From Candidatus Nomurabacteria bacterium RIFCSPLOWO2_01_FULL_42_17 (GTDB lineage Bacteria; Patescibacteriota; Minisyncoccia; Phycocordibacterales; UBA9973): a stretch of DNA of 64,000 nt. A model generated the notes under the pieces. That model made no database searches, was not told where the DNA came from, and worked only from the letters and a program-made list of their open reading frames with translations. Positions 3,884-45,895 of the stretch are shown one piece after another. The first letter of the stretch is position 1, and each line of letters opens with the position of its first letter. Position numbers and translations under genes: made by a program. The stretch is from NCBI GenBank assembly GCA_001785985.1, contig MFVE01000005.1:233771-297770 (forward strand), given 5' to 3'.

Positions 3884-3941
3884 AGTTTTGTAAGTTAAAA
3901 AACTAATAATCTTGACCTTATCTCATTATACACACAACAAA

Positions 3942-4478: not shown

Positions 4479-4502
4479 ACTATTGAGTATAACTTTATTT
4501 TT

Positions 4503-4539
4503 CCCCGCCTGCAACGCTTTGCGTAGCATTACGGGCAGG
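4503..4539. repeat. GC-rich palindromic repeat, family A, copy 1 (CCTGCCCGyAATGCT...GCAGGCGGGG)
   Basis: The minus-strand reading, cctgcccgtaatgctacgcaaagcgttgcaggcgggg, shares both termini with the copies at 13660-13698 and 35053-35092. Confidence 0.7.
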
Positions 4540-4550
4540 TTTTTTTTCAA

Positions 4551-4590
4551 GCCCGACGCTTGCGGTCGGGCCCCCGACTTTACGTCGGGG
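4551..4590 (-). terminator. Tandem GC-rich hairpins downstream of nusA (overlapping its stop codon)
   Basis: gcccgac-gcttgcg-gtcgggc and ccccgac-tttac-gtcgggg lie back to back. On the minus strand they follow the nusA stop. Confidence 0.45.
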
Positions 4591-5740: not shown

Positions 5741-5760
5741 AGTGATTTATTAAATTTTAT

Positions 5761-5785
5761 AAAAAAAGCCCTGTTTCGACAGGAC
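5761..5785 (-). promoter_or_regulatory. Hairpin plus U7 tract in the nusA 5' leader (possible NusA-autoregulatory attenuator)
   Basis: On the minus strand, gtcctgtcgaaacagggc is followed by ttttttt about 20 nt before the nusA AUG. Confidence 0.3.
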
Positions 5786-5960
5786 TCATACGGAGTGATA
5801 ATATCACAATTTATCTTTCAATGCAACTTTTTTGGATGGGTGTGGACAGGGTAGTAGATTTTGACGAAGCCCTTTGGGCGCGCTACGCGCATCGCCAAAA
5901 TTCACTACCCTGTGGATAAGTGAGATTGAGGCACTCTATAATAGAGAGTATAATGTGATT

Positions 5961-26678: not shown

Positions 26679-26725
26679 CTTTATTTTTGCTTGAATATTT
26701 TGGCTAAAAATGTATAATCAGGCGA

Positions 26726-29530
26726 ATGTTTACAATGTTTACATCGAAACATAAATGCCTATGTTTTTTATGTTTTTTGTTTCTTCTCTTTATTTTTATT
26801 TTTCCTTTTGCTCCAAAAGTCCTGGCAGAACAGACTTTTGTAAATATTACTTCAGACCTTACTCTCAATCAGTCTCCTGGAAGTGTCTGTGGCTGGTATT
26901 CCGGAACCTTTAATGCTAAAAAGGTGTTCGGCATTGCCATTTATCGTGGTAATTTCCCTGATACTACCAATTTTGCTAAACAAAGAAAGATGCATGCTCT
27001 TAATTCTTATCTTTCTGATTGCTCCGACGACCCTTATTCGCTTGAATACAATTTTATTTATTCGGCGATTCCCACGCCCGATGGAACATATTGGGTTAGA
27101 ATGACTGCAAATGGTTACCCGTATTTGCCTGATTATCACTCTGTCAGTTATTATTTTGAAGCAAGGCGTTTAAACGGCGTTTGGTCTCTTCTCGAACCGT
27201 CTTCTTGCACTGACGGAATACAAAATCAAGACGAGACGGGTGTCGACATCGGCGGAGTGTGTACAGTCCCCAGCTCCGAAGATGATTCAACGCAAGAGGA
27301 TTTACAGGTTGAAACTCCTACACCTCTGGAAGAGCCAGCTTGCACAGAAAACTGCAACTCAAATGTTCTTTTCTTTCCGGGTATAATGGGTTCAAAGTTG
27401 TATGAACGCGGCGTTGTTTGTGATTCTGATATAAATATTGGCGAATGTGTAGAACAAAAATTATGGTTCTCGACAAACGATTCACTGCAGGCCGATTTAT
27501 CTCTTGATACAAATGGGAAAAGTGTGGGCAGTATTTATACAAAAAATGACACGCAAAAATTAAGCGAAGGTGAAGACGAGACAGGCGTTATCGACAAAAT
27601 AGATGTTATTAATTTATACAAATCTTTTTTCGCTGACCTTAAAAATCTCAAAGATGAGGGGGAAATAGTAGACTATGCCTTCGTTCCGTACGACTGGCGG
27701 CTTTCACTAAATGACATTGTAACAAACGGAAAGGCTTTGTCAGAAAATAGATTGTCTTATGTTACATCACAGGATTTTTCTGAATCATTTATTCTTCAAA
27801 AATTGGAAGAACTTCAGGCAAGCTCGAGGACCGGCAAAGTGACGATCATTGCCCATTCCAACGGTGGATTGGTAACTAAAGCTTTGATCCAAAAATTAAA
27901 AGATACAAATAATCCTCTTTATGAAAAAATAGACAAAATTATTTTTGTCGCCGTGCCGCAAGTAGGTACACCGGATGCTATGGCTGCTTTGTTGCACGGG
28001 AGCGATCTCGGCCCTTTTGGTCTAATCATGAGTGCTAGCAGACATAGACAGCTTGCTGAAAATATGTCTACTGTGTATCACCTACTTCCCTCGGCGGCTT
28101 ATTTTACAACCGTTGACCCCGGTTTTGCAATAGATAAACTAGTTTCTTTCGAAGATCAAACATTCTTTACTCCACAAACATCTCAATATGGAGTTTTTGT
28201 TTCGAATGCCACCGAACTTAAAAATTATATTTTAGGCACAGATGGTCGAGCCAAACCATCTTCTGGGGAAATTGTTCTGCCAAACATTGGGAATGCTGAT
28301 CTATATGCGGAAGCGGAAAGTGTGCATGCTATTCTTGATTCTTGGATGCCGTTTTCAGAAACAAAAGTGATACAGGTGGCTGGCTGGGGAGAAGAGACTC
28401 TAGCAGGCCTGGATTACATGACGCTAAAAGATTCAACCGAACATCTTTCTTATAAACCTCGTATGGTGATTGATGGAGACGCTAGCGTGTTAGTCCCGAG
28501 TGCTTTATGGATGTCGGATTCTAGTCCGAATATTGAGAGGTGGTGGGTTAATTTGGAAGAAGATGAGCCTTTTTCAGTCAACAGAGAACACAGAGATATT
28601 TTAGAAATTTCCAATCTTCGAAAATTTATTGAATTTAGGATTACCCAAGATGAAGACGATAATTCATTATTTACTGACGAAGATAATATAATTGTTAACA
28701 ATGACTCAACTCTAATTTCTGACAAGCCTCGTCTCCATTTTACCTTACATTCTCCTTTAACTCTTAGTATCGTGGATTCACAAGACAGGTATACCGGGTT
28801 GGATCCAGACACGATGGAAATCCGAGAAGAAATTCCAGGTGCGACTTATAAAAAAATAGGTGAGGTGCAGTTCATCTCTGTCCCGGCCGGTGTTTCATAC
28901 ACCTTACTTCTGGATGGTTACGAAAATGGATTCTTTACACTCGATATAGATGAACAGACGGGTAATGAGATTACCGACTCGATCTCCTTTGAGGGTATTT
29001 CTAGCTCGAATTTAACCTTGGTTACTATGGACATTTCTTCGTCTTTCGGAACCGAAAATTCAGAGTTAAGAATAGATGAGGACGGGAATGGCAGTATTGA
29101 TAAAGTTTACAATGTTGTTAATGGAGTAACACAGTATATAGATCAGACCCCGATAATTACCCCGATAATTAGCTCATCAGGTTCACAAAGCAGGAACAGA
29201 ACTTCAAATATCACTGTCCAGGAAACAGTGCCAGTAGAAGAAAAGATAGAAGTTGAGGAGGAAATAAATGTTGATTTTGTTCCGGTGATAGAAGACCCCG
29301 GGGAATCTGATGATGTAGTTATAGATGTAGAAAAAGAATCTAAAAAAGAAATACAGCCTCAGGAAACATCTGAAACTGAAATATTAGAAGAAGCACCAGT
29401 GCCCGAGGACTTACCTTTGTCAGCTTCCGCCGCAGATTCAGGATTTGCGAATAATTTTTCACCATATGCTATGATATTAGGTGTAGTCGGTCTCGCCTAT
29501 TTATCTAAAATGTTTTTTATTAAAGTATAA
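26726..29530 (+). CDS. Large secreted/surface protein (934 aa) with an alpha/beta-hydrolase lipase-like domain and a C-terminal hydrophobic anchor
   Basis: Signal peptide, VLFFPGIMGSKLYERG, a nucleophile elbow IIAHSNGGLV (GxSxG-like) and a C-terminal TM (YAMILGVVGLAYL). It also contains SCTDGIQNQDETGVDIGGVCT, which matches the repeat unit of the protein at 5961. Confidence 0.6.
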   Translation: MFTMFTSKHKCLCFLCFLFLLFIFIFPFAPKVLAEQTFVNITSDLTLNQSPGSVCGWYSGTFNAKKVFGIAIYRGNFPDTTNFAKQRKMHALNSYLSDCSDDPYSLEYNFIYSAIPTPDGTYWVRMTANGYPYLPDYHSVSYYFEARRLNGVWSLLEPSSCTDGIQNQDETGVDIGGVCTVPSSEDDSTQEDLQVETPTPLEEPACTENCNSNVLFFPGIMGSKLYERGVVCDSDINIGECVEQKLWFSTNDSLQADLSLDTNGKSVGSIYTKNDTQKLSEGEDETGVIDKIDVINLYKSFFADLKNLKDEGEIVDYAFVPYDWRLSLNDIVTNGKALSENRLSYVTSQDFSESFILQKLEELQASSRTGKVTIIAHSNGGLVTKALIQKLKDTNNPLYEKIDKIIFVAVPQVGTPDAMAALLHGSDLGPFGLIMSASRHRQLAENMSTVYHLLPSAAYFTTVDPGFAIDKLVSFEDQTFFTPQTSQYGVFVSNATELKNYILGTDGRAKPSSGEIVLPNIGNADLYAEAESVHAILDSWMPFSETKVIQVAGWGEETLAGLDYMTLKDSTEHLSYKPRMVIDGDASVLVPSALWMSDSSPNIERWWVNLEEDEPFSVNREHRDILEISNLRKFIEFRITQDEDDNSLFTDEDNIIVNNDSTLISDKPRLHFTLHSPLTLSIVDSQDRYTGLDPDTMEIREEIPGATYKKIGEVQFISVPAGVSYTLLLDGYENGFFTLDIDEQTGNEITDSISFEGISSSNLTLVTMDISSSFGTENSELRIDEDGNGSIDKVYNVVNGVTQYIDQTPIITPIISSSGSQSRNRTSNITVQETVPVEEKIEVEEEINVDFVPVIEDPGESDDVVIDVEKESKKEIQPQETSETEILEEAPVPEDLPLSASAADSGFANNFSPYAMILGVVGLAYLSKMFFIKV

Positions 29531-29538
29531 ATAATTTT

Positions 29539-29955
29539 ATGAATCACACTTTAAGTTGGTTTAATAATAAAAAAGTTATATATATAAGTTTGTTCGGGGT
29601 GGTGATTTTTATCTTATCTTATTTCAGTAAAGATCTAGGAATATGTCCCAGAGGAGCAACTTATTGTGGTGATTATAGTGAGTACATAGCTATATATTCT
29701 ATATATAGCTTCGCTATACTATACACTGCGATACTCTATAATTTTCTCTCCCAAGGACATAGAAATACTTTTTTAAAGGTTTCTAAAATAGTTCTTTTTT
29801 TATGCTTAGTTTTGACGATTATAACTCCTCTTAAGACTGACGTGTTCGATTTAGTACCAGAAAAAGGAGTTTTAACTTTGTGGATTATCATCAGTTATTT
29901 CTTATTTATAAATATTTACTTTTTTTCACAAAAAAAATTATCTAGTCGAACCTAA
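29539..29955 (+). CDS. Hypothetical integral membrane protein (138 aa, 4 TM)
   Basis: Hydrophobic profile only. Confidence 0.4.
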   Translation: MNHTLSWFNNKKVIYISLFGVVIFILSYFSKDLGICPRGATYCGDYSEYIAIYSIYSFAILYTAILYNFLSQGHRNTFLKVSKIVLFLCLVLTIITPLKTDVFDLVPEKGVLTLWIIISYFLFINIYFFSQKKLSSRT

Positions 29956-30025
29956 AAATTTATTATCATAATAACTAGTAAGAATGGTTCTTTCAGACGC
30001 ACTAGCGAATTTTTGAAATAAAATT

Positions 30026-32728
30026 ATGATAAGTCTCAACGAAATTAAAAATCGTGCTCTCAATTTCTCAAAGGAATGGGAACGTGATTATAATGAAGAC
30101 GCAGAAGCAAAAAGTTTTTGGGATGGATTTTTTGATGTATTTGGAGTTTCTCGAAGACGAGTCGCTTCATTTGAATGGCCAGTAAAAAAGTTAGACAACA
30201 AGCAAGGATATATTGATGTACTTTGGAAGGGGGTTATGTTGGCTGAACATAAATCTAAAAACAAAGACTTAGATAAAGCATATACTCAGGCTAAGGATTA
30301 TTTTCCAGGACTTAAAGATGTAGAATTGCCTCGTTTTATTATAGTTTCCGATTTTGCAAAAATAAGGTTATATGATTTAGAAAAAAATTTAGCACAAGAA
30401 TTTGAACTGAAAGAACTTTCAAGAAATGTAGATTTATTTGATTTTATTTCTGGTCACAAATCAGTTGTTGATTATGGGAAAGAAGAAAAAGCAAGTATTG
30501 AAGCCGCTGAGTTAATGGCGGAATTTCATAATGAGATTGCTAAGACAGGATATTCTGGGCACGATCTTGAAGTCTTCCTGGTGCGTATTCTGTTTTGTCT
30601 GTTTGCTGACGATACCGATATTTTTTCAAAGCATTCCTTTCGTAATTATATAGAAAATAGAACTCAAATTGATGGAAGCGATCTGGGTCCAAAGATAGCT
30701 CAAGTTTTCCAAATTTTAAATACACCAATGGAAAAAAGACAGTCGAACCTAGATGAAGGTTTGGCTGTCTTTCCTTATGTGAATGGTGGAATTTTTTCAG
30801 AAAAGATTGAAATTGTTTCTTGCGATGCTAATGCATTAATTAGATTAATAAAATGTTGTGGTTTCGATTGGTCTGGAATTTCAGCTTCCATCTTCGGCTC
30901 CCTTTTTCAGGGTGTTATGAATGAAGATGAGAGAAGGCAACTGGGTGCTCATTATACTTCTGAACTAAATATTTTAAAAGTTATAAATTCTCTTTTTCTA
31001 GACGAATTGTATATAGAATTTGATAGTGTTAGATATGAACCAAAGAAACTTGAGGTATTTCACACAAAACTTTCTGAATTGAAGTTTTTAGACCCAGCTT
31101 GTGGCTGCGGAAATTTTCTCGTTGTTGCTTATATGGAGATCAGAAAATTAGAATTAGAAATTCTTATCCAAAAAGAAAGGAATGGAGAATTCATGCTCAT
31201 TCCAACTGAGGATATGTCTATTATTAATGTCAATCAATTCTATGGTATCGAAATTGAAGAGTTTCCTGCACTCATAGCCCGCGTCGCGATATATCTAGTG
31301 GATCATCAAATGAATAACGAGTTGTCTAAATACTTCGGTAAAATATATGCTCGTATTCCACTTCGCGAGCCAGCAAGCATAGTAAATGCCGATGCACTTA
31401 TTACTGATTGGGAAAGTGTTGTCCCTAAAAATAAACTTTCTTATATTTTAGGCAATCCACCTTTTGTCGGGGCTCGTTTGATGGGAAAAGGTCAGAAAGA
31501 GATTTTCTTGAAAGTTTTTGATAATGAAAAAGGTACAGGCAATCTTGATTTTGTGACGGCTTGGTATGAGAAAGCATCTCGATATATGGTTGGTACAAAA
31601 ATAAAAACAGCTTTTGTTTCCACTAACTCTATATGTCAGGGCGAACAAGTTGGCATTCTTTGGAAAAGATTAAAGGAAAAATATGGAGTGATAATACATT
31701 TTGCCCATCAGACTTTTAAATGGAATAATGATGCACCTGGTGTTGCAGCGGTCTACTGCATTATTGTAGGTTTTGCTTGTTTTGATACACCCAAAAAGTA
31801 TCTGTATGAATATGAAGATATAAAAGCTGAACCGAAAGAAAAAGAGGTTAAAAATATAAATGCGTATTTAGTAGCGGGGGATGATGTATTTATAGAAAAT
31901 ACAAGGACACCTACTTGCGATGCTCCAGAAATAGTTTTCGGAAGTATGCCAAACGATGGCGGAAATTTTCTTTTTACTGAGGAAGAAAAAAATCAATTTC
32001 TTAATGAAGAACCCAATGCTGAAAAATATATAAAAGAATTAATAAGTGCGAGAGAATATTTAAATGGTGAAAAAAGGTATTGTTTATGGCTGAAAGACAT
32101 TGATCCAAGTATTTTAAAAAAATTGCCAAAAGTTTTAGAACGAATTGACAATGTCAGAAAATTACGAAGTGAAAGTAATCGCAAAGAAACTAAAGATCTT
32201 GCAAAAACTCCCGCATTATTTGGTGAAATAAGACAACCTAAAAGTGATTATATTTTTATCCCACTTACTTCTTCTGAACATAGAGAATATATTCCAATGG
32301 GATTTTTTGATAAAGAAAAAATTTCCAACAATACGGGCAGTCTTGTTACTGATGCAACATTATATCATTTTGGCATTCTTGAATCAGAAATGCATATGAC
32401 TTGGGTTAGATATGTCTGTGGAAGACTAAAAGGGGATTATCGTTATTCAAATACCCTAGTCTATAATAATTTTCCTTGGCCTAAAAATGTAAAAGACGAA
32501 CAGAAAAAGAAAGTTGAAGATTGTGCGCAGAAAGTTCTAGATGTACGTTTGCAGTTTTCTAATAGTTCACTTTCTGACCTATATGATCCAAACACTATGC
32601 CGTCAGATTTAGTAGAAGCGCATAATAATCTCAATAGGGCAGTAGATGTGTGTTATAGAAGCAAGTTTAAAGACTTAGAAGAAAGAATCGAATTTTTGTT
32701 TGAGTTATATAAAAAATACATTAAATAA
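30026..32728 (+). CDS. MmeI-family Type IIL restriction-modification enzyme (single-chain endonuclease, N6-adenine methyltransferase and target-recognition domain)
   Basis: N-terminal PD-(D/E)xK motif GYIDVLWKGVMLAEHKSK (D64...E74-x-K76, matching MmeI D70/E80/K82). MTase motif I FLDPACGCGNFLV and motif IV ILGNPPFVGA. 900 aa, the size of MmeI and its relatives. Confidence 0.8.
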   Translation: MISLNEIKNRALNFSKEWERDYNEDAEAKSFWDGFFDVFGVSRRRVASFEWPVKKLDNKQGYIDVLWKGVMLAEHKSKNKDLDKAYTQAKDYFPGLKDVELPRFIIVSDFAKIRLYDLEKNLAQEFELKELSRNVDLFDFISGHKSVVDYGKEEKASIEAAELMAEFHNEIAKTGYSGHDLEVFLVRILFCLFADDTDIFSKHSFRNYIENRTQIDGSDLGPKIAQVFQILNTPMEKRQSNLDEGLAVFPYVNGGIFSEKIEIVSCDANALIRLIKCCGFDWSGISASIFGSLFQGVMNEDERRQLGAHYTSELNILKVINSLFLDELYIEFDSVRYEPKKLEVFHTKLSELKFLDPACGCGNFLVVAYMEIRKLELEILIQKERNGEFMLIPTEDMSIINVNQFYGIEIEEFPALIARVAIYLVDHQMNNELSKYFGKIYARIPLREPASIVNADALITDWESVVPKNKLSYILGNPPFVGARLMGKGQKEIFLKVFDNEKGTGNLDFVTAWYEKASRYMVGTKIKTAFVSTNSICQGEQVGILWKRLKEKYGVIIHFAHQTFKWNNDAPGVAAVYCIIVGFACFDTPKKYLYEYEDIKAEPKEKEVKNINAYLVAGDDVFIENTRTPTCDAPEIVFGSMPNDGGNFLFTEEEKNQFLNEEPNAEKYIKELISAREYLNGEKRYCLWLKDIDPSILKKLPKVLERIDNVRKLRSESNRKETKDLAKTPALFGEIRQPKSDYIFIPLTSSEHREYIPMGFFDKEKISNNTGSLVTDATLYHFGILESEMHMTWVRYVCGRLKGDYRYSNTLVYNNFPWPKNVKDEQKKKVEDCAQKVLDVRLQFSNSSLSDLYDPNTMPSDLVEAHNNLNRAVDVCYRSKFKDLEERIEFLFELYKKYIK

Positions 32729-32951
32729 ATTTTAAGCCCGCTGTTTTATTCAGCGGGCTTCGGATGGAATTAAGAGATGTATCACAAGCAATCTTTGACT
32801 TATCCTCTCTATGTGAATTATTTTTTTCTGTGTTTTGCCATTCTCGAGGTGAGTTGCAAGTTTGGTACCGAACTTTTCTTCCGACCGGTTAGTAGATTTA
32901 TTTCTTATTTTTATCCACTCTGCTTTATATGCTTTCGAGCATAATCTTTAT

Positions 32952-33299
32952 TTACAAGGTCGTTATTTTATCCCGCGCCAGTTCCTCTTTTTTTATAAAA
33001 GAAGGTTCCGGGAAGGGTGCATTTTTCGACCGAGCTAGTTTGAGGTGTATTGTAGACAGTAATTTTTTACATCTTTCCACATAAGGACGTCGCACACCTA
33101 GCGTGGCAAGATTAGAATCTAATGCAACAAGAATGTCAGGGGATGATTGCACGTTTGTTCTTTCCACCATTTCTCGTATTGCAAATAAACCGTTCTTTAC
33201 TGCATTTTCTCGAGCTCTATCTTGGAACCACTGAAAAGATAAAATAAGAGTAAGTATGATGTTGATTACTTCAGAGAATCCAAAATTAATTTCAGTCAT
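32952..33299 (-). CDS. Hypothetical protein (115 aa, N-terminal TM helix)
   Basis: ORF only. No family recognised. Confidence 0.35.
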   Translation of the reverse strand: MTEINFGFSEVINIILTLILSFQWFQDRARENAVKNGLFAIREMVERTNVQSSPDILVALDSNLATLGVRRPYVERCKKLLSTIHLKLARSKNAPFPEPSFIKKEELARDKITTL

Positions 33300-33479
33300 A
33301 TTATTTTATTTTTTACAGCTTTTTACTGAGCTCGACTATTCTCTGCTGTACTATGTGCATATTATTAGTAGGCGTATATGGATGTAAAGTGGATAACTGG
33401 CATTTTCAGCATTAAAACACAAAATAAAAATTATAAAATACCAATACAGCCTACGAAATAGGTATGATAGGATAATAGT

Positions 33480-33701
33480 GTGAAATACATCCACTGTAAA
33501 GTTGTTGCTTCGGCTAGAAGGGAATCGTTTAAGGTAAAATCCGAGGATCATTTTGAAATTTCAGTCAGAGAAAAAGCTGAAAGAAATATGGCGAATAATC
33601 GCGTCATTTCTCTCGTGGCAGAGCATTTCAAAGTTCCCGTAAATAAGGTCAGGATAATAAACGGGCACAAGCATCCGAGCAAGCTTCTGGTGGTGGACTA
33701 A
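33480..33701 (+). CDS. DUF167 / YggU-family small protein
   Basis: ISVREKAERNMANNRVISLVAEHFKVPVNKVRIINGHKHPSKLLVV matches the UPF0235/YggU pattern (G.AN..L...L...l.v....v.i..G..s..K.v). Confidence 0.55.
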   Translation: MKYIHCKVVASARRESFKVKSEDHFEISVREKAERNMANNRVISLVAEHFKVPVNKVRIINGHKHPSKLLVVD

Positions 33702-33742
33702 CTAAGATTACCTTTAAGTTCTATTTGTGCTAAAATAAATAT

Positions 33743-34117
33743 ATGAAATACATTGATGGATTTGTGATACCTCTAAAGAAAAAAGATGTTGCGGCTTATC
33801 GCAAGATGGCGCAGTGGGGAGCGAAGACTTGGAAAAAATACGGCGCCTTGGAATATTTTGAGTGCATCGGCGATGATCTGAAAGTAAAGAAAGGCATGGG
33901 GCAGGGTTTTGTCAAACTCGCCAAATTGAAAAAAGGGGAGACAGTTGCTTTCTCCTGGATCGTCTACAAGTCTCGCGCGCACCGAGATGCCGTCAACAAA
34001 AAAGTAATGAAAGAAATGGATGCTCCTCTAAACAAAGAAAAGTATAAAAATATGCCGATGCCTTTCGATATGAAGCGCTTTGCTTATGCAGGATTCAAAG
34101 CAATCGTGGAAGCTTGA
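33743..34117 (+). CDS. DUF1428-family protein
   Basis: MKYIDGFVIPLKKKDVAAYRKMAQ...GALEYFECIGDD resembles DUF1428 (YbaA-like) proteins. Confidence 0.45.
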   Translation: MKYIDGFVIPLKKKDVAAYRKMAQWGAKTWKKYGALEYFECIGDDLKVKKGMGQGFVKLAKLKKGETVAFSWIVYKSRAHRDAVNKKVMKEMDAPLNKEKYKNMPMPFDMKRFAYAGFKAIVEA

Positions 34118-34283
34118 TGGATCAAAAGTACTTGATTTTTAGAAGCAAGAGGAGTATAAAATACTCGAAGCTGTAGTCGAGTAAAGACGTCTTAGAGCCT
34201 TAGAGCCATCGGATGATGGATTCTAAGTACACACCTTAGCTGTCTTTTCTCAAAGATAGTGCTGTTCGAAAACCCGAAAACCT

Positions 34284-34598
34284 ATGAAAAAAGTGCAAGT
34301 GTTTAACTCACGCGAGATGATCCATGCCCGTCGTTTAAAACGCAACGCGGTGTATCGGAAGAAACACAATGGTTCAGCTCGACTGGACCAGACGTCCCTA
34401 GCACTCCAGCCGGAGCTGACACCACCAAGTGCAGTTCGGCTGGATCGGAAACCCGAACCAGCAGAGCAACCACCATCGCACTCGCTACAAGCATGGCGAA
34501 AGTGGACCGATGAGGAGCTGGAGAAAGCGGCCGCCACAATCAATGGCCAAAACGGGGGTAAGAAGGACAAAAAGGCGCGCTGGCTTAATTACAGGTAA
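34284..34598 (+). CDS. Hypothetical basic protein (104 aa) on a GC-rich segment
   Basis: An ORF followed directly by a strong terminator. About 58% GC. Its reality is uncertain because GC-rich DNA yields ORFs in all frames. Confidence 0.4.
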   Translation: MKKVQVFNSREMIHARRLKRNAVYRKKHNGSARLDQTSLALQPELTPPSAVRLDRKPEPAEQPPSHSLQAWRKWTDEELEKAAATINGQNGGKKDKKARWLNYR

Positions 34599-34622
34599 AT
34601 TGCCCGGATCGGGCCAATCAGA

Positions 34623-34661
34623 CAGCCCGGAACCCATACGGTTCCGGGCTGTTATTTATTT
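34623..34661 (+). terminator. Rho-independent terminator (cagcccggaac-ccatacg-gttccgggctg followed by ttatttatt)
   Basis: An 11-bp perfect GC-rich stem with a T-rich tail, 25 nt after the stop at 34598. Confidence 0.7.
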
Positions 34662-34664
34662 ACT

Positions 34665-34695
34665 AAATAAAAAAGGAATGGACGAGTGCCATTCC
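34665..34695 (-). terminator. Rho-independent terminator for the minus-strand zinc-ribbon gene (ggaatgg-cactcgt-ccattcc plus U-tract)
   Basis: The hairpin at 34675-34695 is followed on the minus strand by TTTTTTATTT. It converges with the plus-strand terminator. Confidence 0.6.
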
Positions 34696-34723
34696 TGCCC
34701 ATCCGTAGATAGGACTTTGTTTG

Positions 34724-34912
34724 TCATTCTCGGTGGTGGCATACCATGGTATGATGTCCCACCTCCTCCCGAGCGACCCCATTTTTTTTAGGGTCCTCCA
34801 GCTGCCAACCGTCCAAGCACTCATATGAACAAAAGTACTTGTCGTGTCGCCTGTCCCACAGGGCGTGTTCTTCCTCCAACCTTTGCTTGCAGTATGAGCA
34901 TTTTATTTCCAT
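34724..34912 (-). CDS. Small TRASH/zf-FCS-type zinc-ribbon protein (62 aa from the ATG; the tracked ORF starts at a GTG at 34930)
   Basis: C-x2-C-x19-C-x3-C with an FCS motif (CSYCKQ...KYFCSYEC). A perfect SD AAGGAG lies 8 nt upstream of the ATG (MEIKCSYC). Confidence 0.55.
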   Translation of the reverse strand: MEIKCSYCKQRLEEEHALWDRRHDKYFCSYECLDGWQLEDPKKNGVAREEVGHHTMVCHHRE

Positions 34913-35037
34913 AAGAAAGGTCTCCTTCACATATAATTTTATGCCTTTAAATAAAAAAGTAAAGGAAATTGGTGCATAACTCTATGAAGATGTAGGCATA
35001 GGTCTTTTATGGCCTTTTATGTTAAAATCAACTAATA

Positions 35038-38000
35038 ATGGCTGAAAAAGAACCTGCCCGCAATGCTTTCAGCATAGCTGATGCAGGCGGGGAAAAAAGT
35101 AATAAGAGTGATGTAGCGCTTCCAGCCTCCGCTGGTAGCTCTGGCGTGGCGAAGCGCGAGGAAGCAATTTTGCAGTTTTGGAAGAAGAATAAAATTTTCC
35201 AGAAATCTTTAGATAAAAATTCACCAAAGGGGAATTATGTTTTTTATGATGGTCCGCCTTTCGCTACCGGCCTGATACATTATGGACACATTTTAGGGAG
35301 TACTGCCAAAGATGCCGTGGCGCGTTATCAGACGATGAGGGGATATCATGTGCCTAGAAAGTGGGGCTGGGATTGTCATGGACTTCCGATTGAAAACATT
35401 GTTGAAAAAGATTTGAATATTGCCGGACATAAGGAAATAGAAAAGATTGGTATAGATAAATTTGTCGAACATGCGCGGAGTCTTGTCTTGCAATACGATA
35501 AGGAATGGGAAAGCGGGGTAGAGCGCATCGGACGATGGGTGGACTTTCGGGGCGGATACAAAACGATGGACAATACTTTCATCGAATCCGTCTGGTGGGC
35601 GTTTAGCGAGCTAAATAAAAAAGGACTTATCTATGAAGGGGTGAGAGTTCTGGCCTATTGCGCAAGATGCGAGACGCCGATCGCGAATTCCGAAATTGCG
35701 ATGGATAACAGCTATAAAGATATTGCGGATCTTTCTATTTATGTAAAGTTTGAACTGGAAAATGAATCGGGAACATATCTGCTTGCTTGGACCACCACTC
35801 CGTGGACATTGCCGGGGAACACTGCGATTGCGGTAAATAAAAATATTACATATGTAAAAGTGAGAATAGGAAATGATGTGTTGATACTTGCAAAAGACAC
35901 CCTCCAGAATGTATTAAAAGAAAAAGAATATTCTGTGGTAGAGGAAATCAAAGGGAGTGAATTAATAGGCAAAAAATATAAACCGGTATTTCCATACTAT
36001 CGGAATGTTGATCTGCCAAATAAAGAAAACATTTGGAAGGTCTGGTCGGCGGATTTCGTGACGACCGAGAAAGGTACGGGGATCGCGCACGAAGCGCCGG
36101 CTTTCGGCGAGGACGATATGAATCTGGCAAAGCAGTATAGTATTCCCTGGATTATTCACGTGGATGAGACGGGCAGATTTAAGCCCGAAGTTACTGATTT
36201 TTCTGGTTTAAAAGTCAAACCAAAAGATACGCCGGAAGACAAAGATGCGCATATGCGGAGCGATATTGAAATCATTAAATATCTGCAAAAAACCGGAGCA
36301 TATTTTGATAAAGAAAAAATAATCCATTCATATCCGCATTGCATGCGTTGCGATACGCCGATTATTTATTACGCGCTGCCATCCTGGTTCATAAATATTC
36401 AGAAAGTTAAAAAAAATATTTTGAAAAGAGCTGAGAGTATGAATTGGGTTCCTGCACATCTAAAAGAGGGCAGATTTAAAAATATAGTCGAAAATGCGCC
36501 TGATTGGAATGTGTCCAGAAATCGTTACTGGGCTTCGCCTTTACCCGTCTGGAAATGTGAAAAATGCACCGAACAAGTTTTTATTAGTTCGCTCGCAGAT
36601 CTGAAAGTCAAAACAAAAAAGTCCGGTAATAAATATTTTGTAATGCGGCACGGGGAGGCGGAAAATAACGCAAAAAATATTTATTCTTCCAACCAGAAAA
36701 TAAACCACCTGACAGAAAAAGGTCGCACGCAAGTCCTGCAGACGATAGGGCACCTAAAAAGTAAAAAAATCACTAAAATATATTGTTCACCTTTTTTGCG
36801 TACCCGCGAGACGGCGCAAATGGTAGCCGAGAAAATTGGTTTTCCGCTCGAGAAAATTATTTACGATGACAGAATTCGCGAATTAGAATTTGGTGATTTT
36901 TCAGAGCGTCCGGTTTCGGATTACTGGGATTATATGAAAGACAAAATATGGGAATTTGATAAAAAAGTTCCCGGAGGGGAAAGTTTTCAGGATGGCAAGA
37001 ATCGTATTGGAAATTTTCTGTACGATATCGATCAGAAAAATAAAAATGAGTGCATCCTGATCATCTCTCATGGCATTGCAGTCGAGATGGTGCCAGCGGT
37101 GATCGAAGCAGCTGATAAAAAGCGTTCAGCAGAAGTTTTTCATTTGCATATGAAAAATAAAACTGCAGAATTGCATCGTGAACATGAATTTTCTCCTCTT
37201 CCACATAATGCAAATTATGAACTAGATTTTCATAGACCCTATATAGATGAGATAAGACTCGTTTGCAGTTGTAAATCCGAAATGAAGAGAGTGCCCGAAG
37301 TTTTAGATTCTTGGTTGGAGTCTGGTTCCATGCCTTTTGCGCAGAATCACTATCCATTTGAAAATCGAGATTGGCAGAAGAATAATTTTCCGGCTGGTTT
37401 CGTGGCGGAATATATCGCGCAGACCAGAACATGGTTTTATTATACTCATGTGCTCTCGACAATTCTCTTTGATCATGCACCATTTGATAATGTGGTCACC
37501 ACTGGCACGCTGCTCTCGGAAGATGGTCAGAAAATCTCAAAATCTAAAAAGAATTATCCAGACCCATGGATATTTATAGATAAGTATGGAGTGGACGCGC
37601 TTCGTATGTATCTGATGACGAGTCCCCTAATGAAAGGCGAAGATGCAAACTTCTCCGAAAAATTAGTACAGGAAATTTCAAGTAAAATTATCGGAAGACT
37701 TGGTAATGTGGTTTCTTTCTATGAACTCTACCCCGCGCCAGAGCAAGCCAGGTACGAGGCAGGTAGTGATGTTAAAAAGTCTGGAGATATCTTGGATAAA
37801 TGGATTCTGGCGCGATTGAATCAACTGGTGAGTGAAGTTACAAACGGCATGGAAGCCTACGATATGAATGAAGCCTCTCGCCCCATCGAGGGCTTCATTG
37901 AGGATCTTTCTGTGTGGTATCTGCGTCGTTCCAGAGAGCGAATAAAAGATGGGGACAAGGAAGCGAAACAGACTTTATATTTTCTACTAAAAACCGTGGC

Positions 38001-38658
38001 GAAAATCATGGCGCCGTTTGCGCCTTTCACTGCCGATGATATTTGGTTGCGCTTAAAAAATAAAAATGATGCGGAAAGTGTGCATCTGACGCAGTGGCCA
38101 AAAATGTCGAAGCCGGTTTTTGACATTTTTGGCAGTTCGCAAGATAAAATCTTAGGTAGTATGCAAAAAGTTAGAAATATCGTTTCTCTAGGACTGGAGG
38201 CTCGGCAAAAAGCAGGCATAAAAGTGCGACAACCGCTTGCTAGATTAGAAATAAAAGATTTCAATTTGGGAAAAGAATATGTTGAGCTTATAAAAGATGA
38301 ATTGAATGTGAAAGAAGTGAAACAAAATAAAAATCTTGAAAGTGAAGTCAGTCTAGATTTAAATATCACCGAAGAATTAAAGCAAGAGGGAGATTATCGA
38401 GAATTGGTTCGTGCTTTGCAAGATATGCGCAAAAAGATTGGGTTAACCCCGAGTGATGTCGTCGCGCTTACTTTTGAAACAAATGATATGGGTAAAGAAT
38501 TAATTCAAAAGTTTGAACTCGATATAAAGAAAACTGTACTCGTGTCTGAAATAAAATTCAAAGAAAATACTGGTCCTGCTTTCGCCGAAGGCTACAGCGA
38601 GGCGAGGGATGAAATAAAAATAGATGATTTAGTATTTAAGGTAAAAATTGAGAAATAG
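35038..38658 (+). CDS. ileS: Isoleucine--tRNA ligase (type 2) carrying an inserted histidine-phosphatase (PGAM-like) domain
   Basis: PPFATGLIHYGH (HIGH), a CP1 editing domain, WKCEKC ... DFHRPYIDEIRLVCSCK ... KISKSKKN (KMSKS). About 200 extra residues (~aa 521-729) contain FVMRHGEAENN, CSPFLRTRETAQ, ELEFGDF and ILIISHGIAVE. The true start may be the GTG near 35146, because codons 5-18 are a GC-rich repeat. Confidence 0.85.
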   Translation: MAEKEPARNAFSIADAGGEKSNKSDVALPASAGSSGVAKREEAILQFWKKNKIFQKSLDKNSPKGNYVFYDGPPFATGLIHYGHILGSTAKDAVARYQTMRGYHVPRKWGWDCHGLPIENIVEKDLNIAGHKEIEKIGIDKFVEHARSLVLQYDKEWESGVERIGRWVDFRGGYKTMDNTFIESVWWAFSELNKKGLIYEGVRVLAYCARCETPIANSEIAMDNSYKDIADLSIYVKFELENESGTYLLAWTTTPWTLPGNTAIAVNKNITYVKVRIGNDVLILAKDTLQNVLKEKEYSVVEEIKGSELIGKKYKPVFPYYRNVDLPNKENIWKVWSADFVTTEKGTGIAHEAPAFGEDDMNLAKQYSIPWIIHVDETGRFKPEVTDFSGLKVKPKDTPEDKDAHMRSDIEIIKYLQKTGAYFDKEKIIHSYPHCMRCDTPIIYYALPSWFINIQKVKKNILKRAESMNWVPAHLKEGRFKNIVENAPDWNVSRNRYWASPLPVWKCEKCTEQVFISSLADLKVKTKKSGNKYFVMRHGEAENNAKNIYSSNQKINHLTEKGRTQVLQTIGHLKSKKITKIYCSPFLRTRETAQMVAEKIGFPLEKIIYDDRIRELEFGDFSERPVSDYWDYMKDKIWEFDKKVPGGESFQDGKNRIGNFLYDIDQKNKNECILIISHGIAVEMVPAVIEAADKKRSAEVFHLHMKNKTAELHREHEFSPLPHNANYELDFHRPYIDEIRLVCSCKSEMKRVPEVLDSWLESGSMPFAQNHYPFENRDWQKNNFPAGFVAEYIAQTRTWFYYTHVLSTILFDHAPFDNVVTTGTLLSEDGQKISKSKKNYPDPWIFIDKYGVDALRMYLMTSPLMKGEDANFSEKLVQEISSKIIGRLGNVVSFYELYPAPEQARYEAGSDVKKSGDILDKWILARLNQLVSEVTNGMEAYDMNEASRPIEGFIEDLSVWYLRRSRERIKDGDKEAKQTLYFLLKTVAKIMAPFAPFTADDIWLRLKNKNDAESVHLTQWPKMSKPVFDIFGSSQDKILGSMQKVRNIVSLGLEARQKAGIKVRQPLARLEIKDFNLGKEYVELIKDELNVKEVKQNKNLESEVSLDLNITEELKQEGDYRELVRALQDMRKKIGLTPSDVVALTFETNDMGKELIQKFELDIKKTVLVSEIKFKENTGPAFAEGYSEARDEIKIDDLVFKVKIEK
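35053..35092. repeat. GC-rich palindromic repeat, family A, copy 3 (inside the annotated 5' end of ileS)
   Basis: cctgcccgcaatgctttcagcatagctgatgcaggcgggg. Confidence 0.7.
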
Positions 38659-38662
38659 ACTT

Positions 38663-39310
38663 ATGAAAAAAATTTCAGAAATTTATACTGAATATAAGAT
38701 CATGCCGAATTTACAGGAGCATATGCTTCGCGTAGCGGCGGTGGCATCTTTGATTTGTGATAATTTTAATGAGCCAGTCTCAAAAGCAGAACTAGTGACA
38801 GCATGCTTGCTGCATGATATGGGAAATATCATAAAGTCTCAATTGGAATATTTTCCAGAATTTTTAGAGCCAGAAGGACTAGAGTATTGGCAAGGTGTTA
38901 AAAATGAATATATAAATAAATATGGAAGAGATGAACATAAGGCGACAGAACAGATCATGAAAGAGCTTGGTGTATTTCCAAATTTAATTTCAGTTGTAGA
39001 TCAGATTAGATTTTCACTTATTCGTAATATCCGTGACAGCAACGATATGATGATGAAAATAATTATTTATTCCGACAATCGTGCGGATCCGCATGGAATA
39101 GTGTCTTACGAAGAGAGGATGGAAGAGGGGAAAAAGAGATATAAAAATAGAAAAGATGTTTTTGGTATTACAGGACGGGATGAATTGATCCAATGTGGTA
39201 AAGAAATTGAAAAACAAATTTTTTCCAAGTGTAAAATAAAGCCGGAAGATATAAATAACGAAACCGTTGCACCAATAGTTCTAAAATTGAAAAATTTTGT
39301 GGTAAAATAA
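38663..39310 (+). CDS. HD-domain phosphohydrolase
   Basis: The H...HD motif (LLHDMGN) with downstream His/Asp residues. The start is moved to MKKISEIY. It overlaps the end of ileS. Confidence 0.55.
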   Translation: MKKISEIYTEYKIMPNLQEHMLRVAAVASLICDNFNEPVSKAELVTACLLHDMGNIIKSQLEYFPEFLEPEGLEYWQGVKNEYINKYGRDEHKATEQIMKELGVFPNLISVVDQIRFSLIRNIRDSNDMMMKIIIYSDNRADPHGIVSYEERMEEGKKRYKNRKDVFGITGRDELIQCGKEIEKQIFSKCKIKPEDINNETVAPIVLKLKNFVVK

Positions 39311-39368: not shown

Positions 39369-39929
39369 ATGAAGATAATTGATAAAGAATCTAATGCAGG
39401 GAAAATAATTCGTGCGCTAGGTTTTGGGATTGGGATAACAGTGGCTTTATCAAACAGAAGGACTAGTTATAAAATCACTAAATTATTGATCAAAGAAATC
39501 TTTGGATTAAATAAAAGACCGCCTAATATGGCTGGCTACTTTTTAAAACTAAGAAAACAAAAATTGATTGAGATCAAAAAAGACGGGAATCATCATAGAA
39601 TTTTTCTAACAGAAGGTGGCAGAGAGATCTTTTTACGATTCAATTATGAGGAATTAAAAATAAGAAATCCAAAAATCTGGGACCGAAATTTTCGAGTGAT
39701 TGTTTTTGATATTCCAGAAAGAAAAAGAAATGCACGAAATTCTTTAAGAGAAAAGATGAAGGAGTTAGGTTTTATCAAATTTAACGATAGTGTTTGGATT
39801 TATCCTTATCCATGTCAAAAAGAGATTGATTTCATCGCTAATTATTGGGGAATAGGCAAGTATGTGCATTTTATTTTGGCTCGAGATATTACGAATCGCG
39901 ATTTATTAGAAAAGTCCTTCAATTTATAG
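39369..39929 (+). CDS. PaaX-like regulator-type protein (N-terminal wHTH-like region plus C-terminal Cas2-fold-like domain)
   Basis: WDRNFRVIVFDIPERKRNARNSLREKMKELGFIKFNDSVWIYPY resembles the PaaX C-terminal / Cas2-like core. There is no CRISPR array nearby. Confidence 0.4.
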   Translation: MKIIDKESNAGKIIRALGFGIGITVALSNRRTSYKITKLLIKEIFGLNKRPPNMAGYFLKLRKQKLIEIKKDGNHHRIFLTEGGREIFLRFNYEELKIRNPKIWDRNFRVIVFDIPERKRNARNSLREKMKELGFIKFNDSVWIYPYPCQKEIDFIANYWGIGKYVHFILARDITNRDLLEKSFNL

Positions 39930-41287: not shown

Positions 41288-43249
41288 ATGCCAATAAACG
41301 ACAGGGATAAATTAAACAGAATAGAAGAACTCAAGGCTAAGCTTTTCAGTAAAAATTATCAAACAAAGATAGAGCATCGGGATAAATTTTCACATCCAAA
41401 GAGGAGCGATGTGCCAGAGGTCTGGGAAGAGGGCGAGAATCTGGGAACTGGCCCCACTGCTTACACTCAGAGATTTTTTATGAAAACATCAATGTTTAAA
41501 AATTTTTTCATTTTTTCGTCAGTTTTTTTTGTTTTGACGCTCTTGTATGCTTCCTATGTATTTTTTGCCGGAGGTAATACGGTTTCTAACGATAATATTG
41601 ATATTTCTATTCTTGGAAATAATTTTACCGCCGGCGGGGAAGATCTGTCCCTGATTGTTGGGATTACAAATAAAAATAGTTCTGCGCTGGATTTAGTAGA
41701 TCTGGTTTTGGAATATCCTAGGGGCTCTTCTGCCAATTCTGCGGATGGGGGCGCGGGTTCGTCTGCTGGGGTAGAGAGGTTTCGTCAATCTTTGGGCACT
41801 ATTCCTTCTGGAGGCGTGCGCAATGAAAATCTCAAAATAGTTCTTTTTGGCGAGCAAGGTTCGGTGCGCACTATAAAAATTTCTCTAGAGTACCGGGTCG
41901 AAGGCTCGAATGCGATTTTTGTTAAAGAAAAATCTTATGATGTTACTATCAGCTCCACACCCCTCAATATTTCTGTCGATGCGCCTGCGACCGTCAGCCC
42001 GAATCAAGATATCACCCTCAATATCAAGGCGACGTTGAACGCTACGAATACAGTTCCAAAGATGCTCCTCAAGGTTGATTATCCGGCTGGGTTTAAATTT
42101 GAATCCTCTGTGCCCGCCACAACTCTCGGCAACAATGTCTGGAGTTTGGGAGATCTGCCTCCGGGCGCTGAGCGCAATATCTCAATCACAGGCAAGATGC
42201 TCGATGTTTTTGATGGAGAAGAAAAAATATTTCACATTACGAGCGGTTCGCAAGGCGTGGGAGACAAGACTATGATCGATGTGATTTTTAATTCTATATC
42301 GCACATCGTTGCTATTAAAAAACCCTTCATCGAAGCGAAACTTTTTATCAATGGCGTATCAGGCAGGGAATATACTACGAATGCGCAGTCGCCAGTCCAT
42401 GGCGAGATTCGCTGGGTTAATAATTTGGACACCAAAGTGAATGATTTGGAGATTCGGGCAAAAATTTCCGGCAATGCAGTTGATCGCAAGACGATCAAAG
42501 CCGATGGTGGATTTTATGATTCGTCTAAAAATGTAATAATTTGGGACAAGCATTCAGAAGACGGATTCAGTGAGATAAATCCGGGTGATTCCGGGGCAGC
42601 AAATTTCTCCGTCTCTCCACTTTCTCTCTTTTCAGCTACGGGCGAAATGCTCTCTAGTCCCACCATTACTATAGACATTTCTATTTCCGGCAAACAATTA
42701 GTCTCTGGCTATACAGCTGCCGATTTGAATAATTCTAATACCTCTATCATTCGGATCATTTCTGATGTGGGATTAAACACAAAGGCGTTCTATTATTCCG
42801 GGCCTTTCACTAACACTGGCCCGATACCGCCGAAGGTTGAAAAAACGACTACCTACACTATAGTCTGGTCCGTATCTAATACAGCCAACAATATTTCGAG
42901 GGGCGTTGTCCGTTCTACCCTGCCTTCTTGGATCAAATTTGTGGGCGCTATTTCACCTTCGAATGAAGATTTGAATTACAATCCTTCTACCAGAGAAATA
43001 GTTTGGAATATTGGCAACATCCCGAGGGGTACAGATATCACCGGCTTGCCTCGCAGTGTCGCTTTCCAGATCAGCTTTACTCCGTCACTTTCTCAAGTTC
43101 GCACTACGCCGATCATTATCAATGAAGCAGTTTTGACTGGCCATGATGATTTTGCTAATGTGGATGTGAGAGCGAGCAAAGGGTCGCTTCGCACTCAGCT
43201 TTCGAGCGACCCTCAGTTTCCCTCCGCTGGCGGCACGGTAGTTGAATAA
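41288..43249 (+). CDS. Membrane-anchored cell-surface protein with DUF11-like repeats
   Basis: N-terminal TM (FFIFSSVFFVLTLLYASYVFF), then repeated beta-rich modules (TYTIVWSVSNTANN, REIVWNIGNIPRG). Confidence 0.5.
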   Translation: MPINDRDKLNRIEELKAKLFSKNYQTKIEHRDKFSHPKRSDVPEVWEEGENLGTGPTAYTQRFFMKTSMFKNFFIFSSVFFVLTLLYASYVFFAGGNTVSNDNIDISILGNNFTAGGEDLSLIVGITNKNSSALDLVDLVLEYPRGSSANSADGGAGSSAGVERFRQSLGTIPSGGVRNENLKIVLFGEQGSVRTIKISLEYRVEGSNAIFVKEKSYDVTISSTPLNISVDAPATVSPNQDITLNIKATLNATNTVPKMLLKVDYPAGFKFESSVPATTLGNNVWSLGDLPPGAERNISITGKMLDVFDGEEKIFHITSGSQGVGDKTMIDVIFNSISHIVAIKKPFIEAKLFINGVSGREYTTNAQSPVHGEIRWVNNLDTKVNDLEIRAKISGNAVDRKTIKADGGFYDSSKNVIIWDKHSEDGFSEINPGDSGAANFSVSPLSLFSATGEMLSSPTITIDISISGKQLVSGYTAADLNNSNTSIIRIISDVGLNTKAFYYSGPFTNTGPIPPKVEKTTTYTIVWSVSNTANNISRGVVRSTLPSWIKFVGAISPSNEDLNYNPSTREIVWNIGNIPRGTDITGLPRSVAFQISFTPSLSQVRTTPIIINEAVLTGHDDFANVDVRASKGSLRTQLSSDPQFPSAGGTVVE

Positions 43250-43292
43250 TATGAAAAAAGAGAAAAAAGAAAATTTGCAGGAGAATGATTTG

Positions 43293-44597
43293 ATGGAGAA
43301 AATAGTCTCGCTCTGTAAAAGGCGCGGGTTTGTCTTTCAGGGTTCGGAAATATATGGGGGATTAGGGGGTACTTATGACTGGGGGCATTTCGGAGTGGCG
43401 TTAAAAAATAATATCAAGCAATCTTGGTGGAAAAAATTTGTGGATTCCAGGAGAGATATGTATGGCATCGATGCGGCTATTTTGATGCGCCAAGAAGTCT
43501 GGCAAGCGTCCGGCCATGTGGCGGGATTTGCAGATCCCATGTCCGAATGCGAGAAATGCAAGATGCGATTTCGCGCAGATCAACTTGAAGATGCGAAGAA
43601 ATGTCCCGAATGCGGGGGAAAACTGGGCGAAGTGAAGCAATTTAATATGATGTTCTCTACCAGAGTCGGCGCATCGCAAGATTCTTCGGCCACTTCCTAT
43701 CTGCGTCCGGAAACAGCGCAGGGAATGTTTGTAAATTTCAAAAATACTGTGGATGCTTTTCATCCCAGGTTGCCTTTCGGCCTGGCGCAGATCGGCAAGG
43801 CGTTTCGAAACGAGATCACGCCTAGAGATTTTCTTTTCCGACAGCGCGAATTTGAACAGATGGAGATAGAATATTTTATCAGAGAAGAAGATTGGGAAAA
43901 ACATTTTGAATATTGGAGGGGCGAGATGCTGAGCTGGATGCAGGAAGTCGGGCTAGATATGGCAAAAGTCCATGAGCTAGAGGTGTTAAAGGAAGATCGG
44001 GCGCATTACTCTAGCCGGACAGTGGATTTCGAATTTGATTATCCTTTTGGCAAAAAAGAGCTCTTTGGGCTGGCATATCGCACGGATTTTGATTTGAAAA
44101 ATCACAAACTTGAATACATAGACGAACCCGCCGACGCTGAAGCTATGTCGGGCAAGGGAAAAAGTCAAAAAATAGTTCCGCATGTCATCGAGCCGACCTT
44201 CGGCGTCGATCGCGCGGTGCTGGCTCTGATTCTTTCTGTCTATGTGGAAGATGAAAAAGACGGAGAAGTGCGTTCATATCTAAAATTTAAGCCAAACATC
44301 GCTCCAGTGATCTGCGCTGTTTCGCCTTTACTTAAAAATAAGCCAGAGCTCGTGGAATATGCGAATAAAAAAGTTTACGAGCCGCTCAAGGCAGAATTTG
44401 GACGTGTAGCCTGGGATGACAATGGCAATATCGGCAAGCGTTATCGTCGACAAGATGAAATCGGCACGCCGTTTTGCATCGTGGTAGATTTTGATACGCT
44501 CACGGATGATAGCGTGACTGTCCGCGACCGCGATACGGGGGAACAAGAGAGAATAAAAGTAGCGGATTTAAAAAAATATATAAAAGAAAAGATTTAA
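43293..44597 (+). CDS. glyQS: Glycine--tRNA ligase (alpha2 dimeric type)
   Basis: MEKIVSLCKRRGFVFQGSEIYGGLGGTYDWGHFG and class II motifs. The start is moved to MEKIV. The tracked ORF begins at 43242. Confidence 0.85.
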   Translation: MEKIVSLCKRRGFVFQGSEIYGGLGGTYDWGHFGVALKNNIKQSWWKKFVDSRRDMYGIDAAILMRQEVWQASGHVAGFADPMSECEKCKMRFRADQLEDAKKCPECGGKLGEVKQFNMMFSTRVGASQDSSATSYLRPETAQGMFVNFKNTVDAFHPRLPFGLAQIGKAFRNEITPRDFLFRQREFEQMEIEYFIREEDWEKHFEYWRGEMLSWMQEVGLDMAKVHELEVLKEDRAHYSSRTVDFEFDYPFGKKELFGLAYRTDFDLKNHKLEYIDEPADAEAMSGKGKSQKIVPHVIEPTFGVDRAVLALILSVYVEDEKDGEVRSYLKFKPNIAPVICAVSPLLKNKPELVEYANKKVYEPLKAEFGRVAWDDNGNIGKRYRRQDEIGTPFCIVVDFDTLTDDSVTVRDRDTGEQERIKVADLKKYIKEKI

Positions 44598-45866: not shown

Positions 45867-45895
45867 TTTTAAGAATTCTGTGTTATCATACCTCT

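Follow-up and report, generated by a model that had tools for sequence, protein, structure and literature searches.

Enzymes of the MmeI family modify a single DNA strand, require two sites for cleavage and cut 20/18 nt away (PMC2582602, PMC2731913). Methylation is confined to the penultimate adenine of the top strand, and such a mark blocks the enzyme (PMC2731913), while the cut falls 20 (±1)/18 nt downstream (PMC2731913, PMC4833311). In MmeI, the Type IIL prototype, alanine at any of D70, E80 or K82 leads to loss of cleavage, and His314 and Trp570 box the flipped adenine and are absolutely conserved in 341 family members (PMC4833311). Cryo-electron microscopy of DrdV, another Type IIL enzyme, showed that a lone molecule methylates slowly and that multi-molecule, DNA-bound assemblies license fast cleavage (10.1101/2021.01.06.425610). 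Patescibacteria are already described as carrying restriction-modification (R-M) systems and defence genes of horizontal origin (PMC12455944). Here, we analyse a gene at 30026..32728 on the + strand of a 64,000-nt stretch of DNA (the window) from Candidatus Nomurabacteria bacterium RIFCSPLOWO2_01_FULL_42_17, contig MFVE01000005.1; the identical protein is on record for this organism with the bare label "methylase". We conclude that the gene very probably encodes a stand-alone MmeI-family Type IIL enzyme that was horizontally acquired by Candidatus Nomurabacteria into a variable gap between argS and ileS. The gene and its parts are as follows.

30026..32728, + strand: complete gene for an MmeI-family Type IIL (IIG) R-M enzyme (open reading frame, Pfam, 5HR4 match, PADLOC)
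30026..30544, + strand: PD-(D/E)xK nuclease domain, aa 1-173 (MmeI_N over aa 10-173, E=8.9e-39)
30215-30217, 30245-30247 and 30251-30253, + strand: catalytic codons D64, E74 and K76
30560..30796, + strand: helical spacer, aa 179-257 (MmeI_hel, E=4.9e-25)
30950-30952, + strand: H309 codon, just 5′ of the methyltransferase domain
31031..31807, + strand: gamma-class N6-adenine methyltransferase domain, aa 336-594 (MmeI_Mtase, E=2e-85)
31088-31120, + strand: motif I, LDPACGCGNFL, aa 355-365
31454-31465, + strand: motif IV, NPPF, aa 477-480
31721-31723, + strand: W566 codon
31877..32485, + strand: target recognition domain (TRD), aa 618-820 (MmeI_TRD, E=5.9e-77)
32489..32722, + strand: MmeI C-terminal domain, aa 822-899 (MmeI_C, E=2.2e-27)

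The open reading frame (ORF) runs uninterrupted from ATG to TAA and encodes 900 aa, as an initial reading of the letters (the sequence-only reading) had proposed. The NCBI record places the start one codon upstream, at an ATT (30023), which yields 901 aa; 30026 is the first canonical start. The only solved structure that the sequence matches is MmeI itself (5HR4), to which it aligns continuously from end to end (phmmer E=1.1e-282; query 2-898 against MmeI 3-902) at 49.4% identity over 893 columns, of which 11 contain gaps. Family membership has been defined as similarity over the whole length of MmeI at E < 1e-20 (PMC2731913), and the present alignment lies far inside that definition. All five MmeI Pfam domains were found, each well over its gathering score, and the best PADLOC model, REase_MTase_IIG, was matched over its full length with 1178 bits. 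Together, the five domains and the end-to-end alignment bear out the proposed single-polypeptide MmeI-family assignment beyond the methyltransferase part, and the Pfam matches to MmeI_hel, MmeI_TRD and MmeI_C do the same for the helical spacer and the C-terminal recognition region that had been read from the letters. By these comparisons, the gene product is an ordinary, apparently intact MmeI-family enzyme, whose family, mechanism and specificity code are already well described.

The N-terminal nuclease motif lies in the context GYID64VLWKGVMLAE74HK76, where the D64-x9-E74-x-K76 columns align with D70, E80 and K82 of MmeI. The intact triad claimed by the sequence-only reading is therefore column-matched, and the MmeI_N model is matched as well. 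That reading had set an alignment with MmeI beforehand as its refuting check; we found no substitution at the D, E or K positions, and the N-terminus was not of the YeeA type. We then compared the enzyme with its relatives, using a MAFFT alignment of 117 of the 120 best homologues (query included) together with MmeI. The nuclease triad is unchanged in 117/117, and the nuclease and methyltransferase domains show equal mean identity to the query (0.725 and 0.726, respectively). Codon comparison with two homologues gave a nuclease-domain ratio of nonsynonymous to synonymous substitution rates (dN/dS) of 0.09-0.12, which is approximate because dS exceeds 1. The predicted fold of the N-terminal domain has Type IIL DrdV and Type IIG BpuSI as its nearest neighbours; restriction-endonuclease-fold proteins and HsdR nuclease domains also figure in this comparison. 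The invariant triad, the equal conservation of the two domains, the low dN/dS and the predicted fold consequently argue for purifying selection on a nuclease of the expected fold, with activity itself deduced from conservation. By homology to the MmeI structure (PMC4833311), the helical spacer that follows would set the ~20-nt distance between recognition site and cut.

The methyltransferase domain is equally complete. The gamma-class assignment and its DPACGCGNFL and NPPF motifs, also part of the initial claim, stand at aa 355-365 and 477-480, while H309 and W566 correspond to the adenine-stacking His314 and Trp570 of MmeI. H309, motif I, NPPF and W566 are each unchanged in 117/117 homologues. 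Thus, as judged by alignment, all published catalytic residues are present in one polypeptide.

An improbable alternative is that the protein acts only as a methyltransferase, either as an orphan or as an epigenetic regulator, and that its nuclease domain is retained in sequence and unused for restriction in the host. Public records call it 'methylase' or 'DNA methyltransferase', a restriction phenotype in the native host is unreported even for characterised family members (PMC2731913), and the host genome holds many predicted sites that must be tolerated. However, a dispensable nuclease domain would be expected to decay or disappear, as it has in YeeA-type relatives, whereas here the triad is invariant and the nuclease, with a dN/dS of about 0.1, equals the methyltransferase in conservation. 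The label also carries little weight, being the generic one for most family members, including a gene on plasmid pTP10 whose read-out and source match CstMI; likewise, MmeI-family genes occur on 319 PLSDB plasmids, where they are mostly labelled 'DNA methyltransferase'.

The protein could also be the methyltransferase or specificity part of a multi-gene defence system, such as PglX of BREX, DrmMI of DISARM, mad2 of MADS or a YeeA/YeeB/YeeC-type set. These BREX, DISARM and MADS methyltransferases have a methyltransferase core in common with MmeI, and we obtained partial PADLOC matches to mad2 (E=1.4e-42), DrmMI (2.4e-31) and the PglX models, as well as weak NCBIfam matches to BREX PglX. The latter, however, reach about 20 bits compared to cut-offs of 500 and 900 and cover only ~80 residues around motif I, while the top PADLOC model is the full-length REase_MTase_IIG. 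YeeA-type proteins are without a nuclease motif (PMC2731913), and this enzyme has one. Over about 10 kb on each side we found no partner gene, be it a helicase, PglZ, BrxC/L, DrmA/B or GIY-YIG, and homologues at two other loci are likewise solitary. We therefore rejected membership in BREX, DISARM, MADS or YeeA systems on the scores and the missing partners, and regard this explanation as highly improbable. The sequence-only reading had set the protein apart from BREX PglX and YeeA-like methylases and had seen no BREX-type neighbours; both statements hold, with PglX scores of ~20 bits, a PD-ExK motif in place, no adjacent helicase or GIY-YIG gene, and no BREX, DISARM or YeeB/C genes in the neighbourhood.

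For the stand-alone Type IIL enzyme, homology to MmeI, to its 20 characterised relatives and to DrdV points to the following mechanism. The site read by the TRD would be asymmetric and 6 bp long. Bound there singly, a molecule would use S-adenosylmethionine to methylate the N6 position of the penultimate adenine on the top strand only, and this top-strand mark would serve as the label of host DNA. On incoming DNA, several molecules bound at unmethylated sites would assemble, and their nuclease domains would then cut both strands ~20/18 nt downstream. We expect these family properties here, with a DrdV-like choice between methylation and cleavage.

We predicted the recognition site by applying the published rules that relate TRD residues to bases (Morgan & Luyten 2009, PMC2731914; Callahan et al. 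2016, PMC4833311). The contacts K802/D804, R806, N769 and T748/L801 lie at the columns expected from the MmeI family, and the six positions read as follows.

Position 1, R719/G733/E734: the exact Arg/Gly/Glu triplet of NlaCI; predicted C
Position 2, F638/M641: the Phe/Met pair given for SdeAI and CstMI; predicted A
Position 3, L747/N769: hydrophobic-contact reasoning; predicted T or Y
Position 4, T770/R806: arginine specifies a purine, and whether either purine (R) or G alone is read depends on how large the partner residue is; predicted R or G
Position 5, T748/L801: conserved contacts facing the methylated adenine; predicted A
Position 6, K802/D804: the invariant KxD rule; predicted G

The predicted site is thus 5′-CA(T/Y)(R/G)AG-3′. 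Its individual bases differ in certainty. The C at position 1, the A at position 2, the methylated A and the G at position 6 are fairly secure predictions; published substitutions act in the same way at two of them, where K645M in MmeI changes position 2 to A and E806K/R808D gives an enzyme that cuts TCCRAG (PMC2731914 / PMC4833311). Position 4 is predicted to be a purine through R806, either R or G only. The call at position 3 is the least certain: the Val/Asn pair of PspPRI reads Y there (PMC2731914 / PMC4833311), and T or Y was assigned here since a bulkier hydrophobic side chain is expected to prefer the methyl group of thymine. As a positive control, we read a 950-aa MmeI-family gene from C. 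striatum pTP10, taken to be CstMI; its signature (A/G/Q, F/M, K/D, L/R, K/D) returned the published site, AAGGAG. The site predicted for the Nomurabacteria enzyme is absent among the characterised enzymes of the 2009 table (PMC2731913), and a full-text literature search, which did not cover REBASE, returned no paper with CATRAG, CAYRAG, CAYGAG or their complements.

MaqI was also considered as a calibrator for position 3, on the guess that it is encoded on Marinobacter plasmid pMAQU01, and was left unused, as the sole methyltransferase in the 40-90 kb section of that plasmid is 25% identical and its TRD alignment is unreliable. This protein is an 1151-aa 'DNA methyltransferase' of Marinobacter nauticus VT8 (pMAQU01 42491-45946, or 2491-5946 of our extract L061), with the 25% identity spanning query residues 112-888. 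Aligned with MAFFT, it shows D/E/K-like residues, NPPY and, in the columns for position 6, E/R; it is a possible MaqI at most.

The enzyme belongs to a well-populated clade. The named homologues among the best 120 all come from metagenome-assembled genomes (MAGs), either of Patescibacteria (Nomurabacteria, Paceibacterota, Zambryskibacteria, Parcubacteria) or of an unclassified 'bacterium', and these best 120 are 60-81% identical to the query, leaving aside two entries that represent the query. Across the 117 aligned sequences, the base-contact residues form 43 distinct signatures counting MmeI and 42 without it. At positions 806/808, the pair exchanged in the MmeI variant above, K/D and E/R covary perfectly (71 vs 46 sequences, the 46 including MmeI), and at positions 751/773 R/D alternates with x/N across the clade. 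In aligned sequence, this covariation reproduces the published family rules. Position-1 triplets that match tabulated enzymes also recur in the clade (S/H/V, D/R/E, A/R/Q and A/A/Q).

The TRD is the most variable domain, with a mean identity to the query of 0.594 across the 117 sequences. Its dN/dS is 0.12 against P0008, a homologue with the same signature, and 0.29 against P0006, whose signature differs; between P0006 and P0008, whose signatures also differ, it is 0.39. By these codon comparisons, TRD divergence tracks the signature. The same two homologues (79% identity for P0006 and 78% for P0008) lie at unrelated loci, both as solitary genes, and one adjoins an integrase of the insertion-sequence type.

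We next compared the setting of the gene with 55 related loci of Nomurabacteria and Paceibacterota, obtained by scanning species-representative genomes for arginyl-tRNA synthetase (ArgRS). Its order is ArgRS, a 934-aa LCAT-like protein, a 138-aa membrane ORF, the enzyme, a 115-aa ORF on the opposite strand, DUF167, DUF1428 and isoleucyl-tRNA synthetase (IleRS), with these features:

26679..35037, no strand assigned: variable interval between ArgRS and IleRS, with the enzyme gene in it (synteny over 55 loci)
26726..29530, + strand: 934-aa LCAT/alpha-beta-hydrolase protein, with an AHSNGG serine motif, a signal-like hydrophobic stretch at its N-terminus and a C-terminal transmembrane segment
29539..29955, + strand: 138-aa ORF that follows the LCAT-like gene, with three transmembrane segments and no Pfam match
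32734..32760, no strand assigned: G+C-rich hairpin, AAGCCCGCTG-ttttatt-CAGCGGGCTT, with a 10-bp stem of which 7 pairs are GC, six bases past the stop codon
32952..33299, - strand: 115-aa ORF, convergent with the enzyme gene, with one predicted N-terminal transmembrane segment

The backbone of four upstream genes, ArgRS, IleRS and an HD protein is conserved in the 55 related loci. The ArgRS-IleRS gap, in turn, varies in length between about 30 bp and about 7.5 kb, with the two synthetase genes abutting in at least 7/55 loci, and an MmeI-like gene was found in it in 0/55. The "accessory-looking" stretch of the sequence-only reading is accordingly a gap that varies across relatives and lacks the gene in 55/55 of them. 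The neighbours are also as that reading described them, with a lipase-like 934-aa protein (LCAT match, signal-like N-terminus) upstream and Pfam-less small ORFs of 138 and 115 aa on the two sides. The fraction of G+C at third codon positions (GC3) is 0.232 in the enzyme gene compared to 0.32-0.45 in the seven backbone genes that flank it, from 21653 through IleRS; it is also low in the HD (0.29) and PaaX (0.28) genes further downstream. The low GC3, the absence from 55 loci and the presence of 78-79% identical homologues at unrelated loci together lead us to read the locus as a variable hotspot and the gene as a probably horizontally acquired, self-contained unit. The hairpin past the stop codon is likely a transcription terminator that closes this one-gene unit, a function suggested by its sequence. 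Among ORFs of 120 aa or longer in the 64-kb window, the enzyme alone carries an amino-methyltransferase motif IV, (D/N/S)PP(Y/F/W/H), so that no second amino-methyltransferase was found; C5-methyltransferases were not specifically searched.

Such a setting could also be that of a recently acquired, non-functional passenger, that is, silent or degenerating MAG DNA or a mis-binned contig fragment, which we consider scarcely credible. The atypical composition would fit, as would the presence of the gene at this locus in this genome only, and upstream of it we identified neither a clear promoter nor a clear Shine-Dalgarno sequence. However, the 2.7-kb ORF is intact and without frameshift-prone repeats, and no tract longer than A7 that could support phase variation occurs in the gene. 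On both sides the gene order follows the conserved Nomurabacteria backbone, and the sequence is therefore not a chimeric contig end. A 100%-identical protein (P0002, 3 contigs) is present in independent Joint Genome Institute and European Nucleotide Archive assemblies.

Several observations weigh against the reading of the gene as an active, acquired Type IIL enzyme with the predicted site. Every functional assignment is made by homology at 49% identity, and the source is a metagenome-assembled genome in which consensus errors are possible. The AlphaFold2 model of the nuclease domain is of moderate confidence (pLDDT, predicted local distance difference test, 75). Three of the 20 characterised family members are naturally inactive, through disruption of the ORF (PMC2731913), although no such disruption occurs here. 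The insertion is bounded by no repeats, tRNA or integrase; the repeats near the gene are short, AT-rich and of chance quality (such as the 16-nt one at 29895 and 32898). The L747/N769 pair has no calibrated counterpart in the accessible literature. Lastly, CAYRAG is not depleted in the 64-kb window, with 77 sites observed compared to 73 expected under a maximal-order Markov model, a count that neither supports nor refutes the predicted specificity.

The remaining genes of the region were also examined. The 138-aa ORF is weakly similar (E about 1e-3) to small ORFs that follow the LCAT-like gene at two related loci (L018 and L023), and was therefore grouped with the LCAT-like gene and not with the enzyme; the similarity suggests that the LCAT-like gene and the small ORF form a conserved pair. 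The 115-aa ORF has no Pfam match and no homologue in the 61 loci compared, and we list it as a candidate gene only. At other loci the gap is variously occupied by a PIF1-like helicase, by LCAT-like surface proteins (860 to about 1640 aa) and by Schlafen/AlbA_2, GHKL (HATPase_c_3) and cysteine-rich repeat proteins. Hotspot examples in relatives include L008 (11888-13246) and L032 (14515-16092), and at many loci the variable genes lie directly past ArgRS.

Downstream, IleRS (35038..38658, + strand, 1206 aa) carries a histidine-phosphatase domain (PF00300, aa 534-693, E=7.7e-30, with an RHGE motif), which lies at ~36637..37116 and separates the catalytic domain into two halves. The insert also occurs in the IleRS genes of about 40/55 related loci (27-77% identity) and is thus lineage-wide and not an assembly artefact. 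Immediately 3′ of IleRS are a 220-aa HD-domain protein (38648..39310, + strand), syntenic in many relatives, and a 186-aa protein with the PaaX central (Cas2-like) domain (39369..39929, + strand), whose position shifts among relatives.

The analysis mends an annotation, from a generic "methylase" to a predicted bifunctional R-M enzyme. It also offers a picture of streamlined candidate phyla radiation (CPR) genomes in which single-gene R-M modules are carried and exchanged between loci while their TRD diversifies rapidly. The predicted recognition sequence may represent a specificity that Type IIL enzymes do not yet offer. It is possible, though we lean against it, that what is new here is a CATRAG/CAYRAG-type site outside the characterised list (PMC2731913), together with a large radiation of MmeI-type enzymes in Patescibacteria that has so far gone undescribed, with 42 signatures among no fewer than 117 clusters of ≥60% identity. 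If so, a one-gene R-M module that is retargeted by a few point changes would be a preferred and often-exchanged defence format of ultra-small genomes, and the Patescibacteria clade would offer new Type IIL specificities as a natural, ready-made library. In practical terms the finding is of modest value, and no new question is opened.

Among described systems, the closest is MmeI of Methylophilus methylotrophus (TCCRAC 20/18; PDB 5HR4). Both enzymes have the five-domain architecture at similar length (900 vs 919 aa), an identical D/E/K triad, DPACGCGNFL, NPPF and His/Trp adenine box, the same T and L contacts at position 5, and a solitary gene without a companion methyltransferase. They differ in 9/11 specificity residues (A/F/Y to R/G/E, Y/K to F/M, E to L, A to T and E/R to K/D, from MmeI to the query), and a different site, CA(T/Y)(R/G)AG and not TCCRAC, is therefore expected. 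The minor-groove residues K487/S488/K489 of MmeI are A/R/L in the query, whose host, unlike that of MmeI, is a CPR bacterium.

The specificity residues find their counterparts in other family members. The position-1 triplet R/G/E is that of NlaCI (CATCAC), the position-2 pair F/M is that of SdeAI (CAGRAG) and CstMI (AAGGAG), and K/D at position 6 follows the family rule for G in the group of SdeAI, NlaCI, PlaDI (CATCAG) and CstMI, although CstMI as a whole is only 36% identical to the query. DrdV (Type IIL, PDB 7LO5) and BpuSI (Type IIG, PDB 3S1S) are more distant, with about 9-10% identity in the aligned region, and belong to other subfamilies with a different reach and different recognition modules. 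BREX PglX and YeeA-type proteins have the methyltransferase core and TRD ancestry in common with the enzyme; unlike it, they are without a PD-(D/E)xK N-terminus and depend on partners, whereas here the nuclease is intact by alignment and the gene stands without partners.

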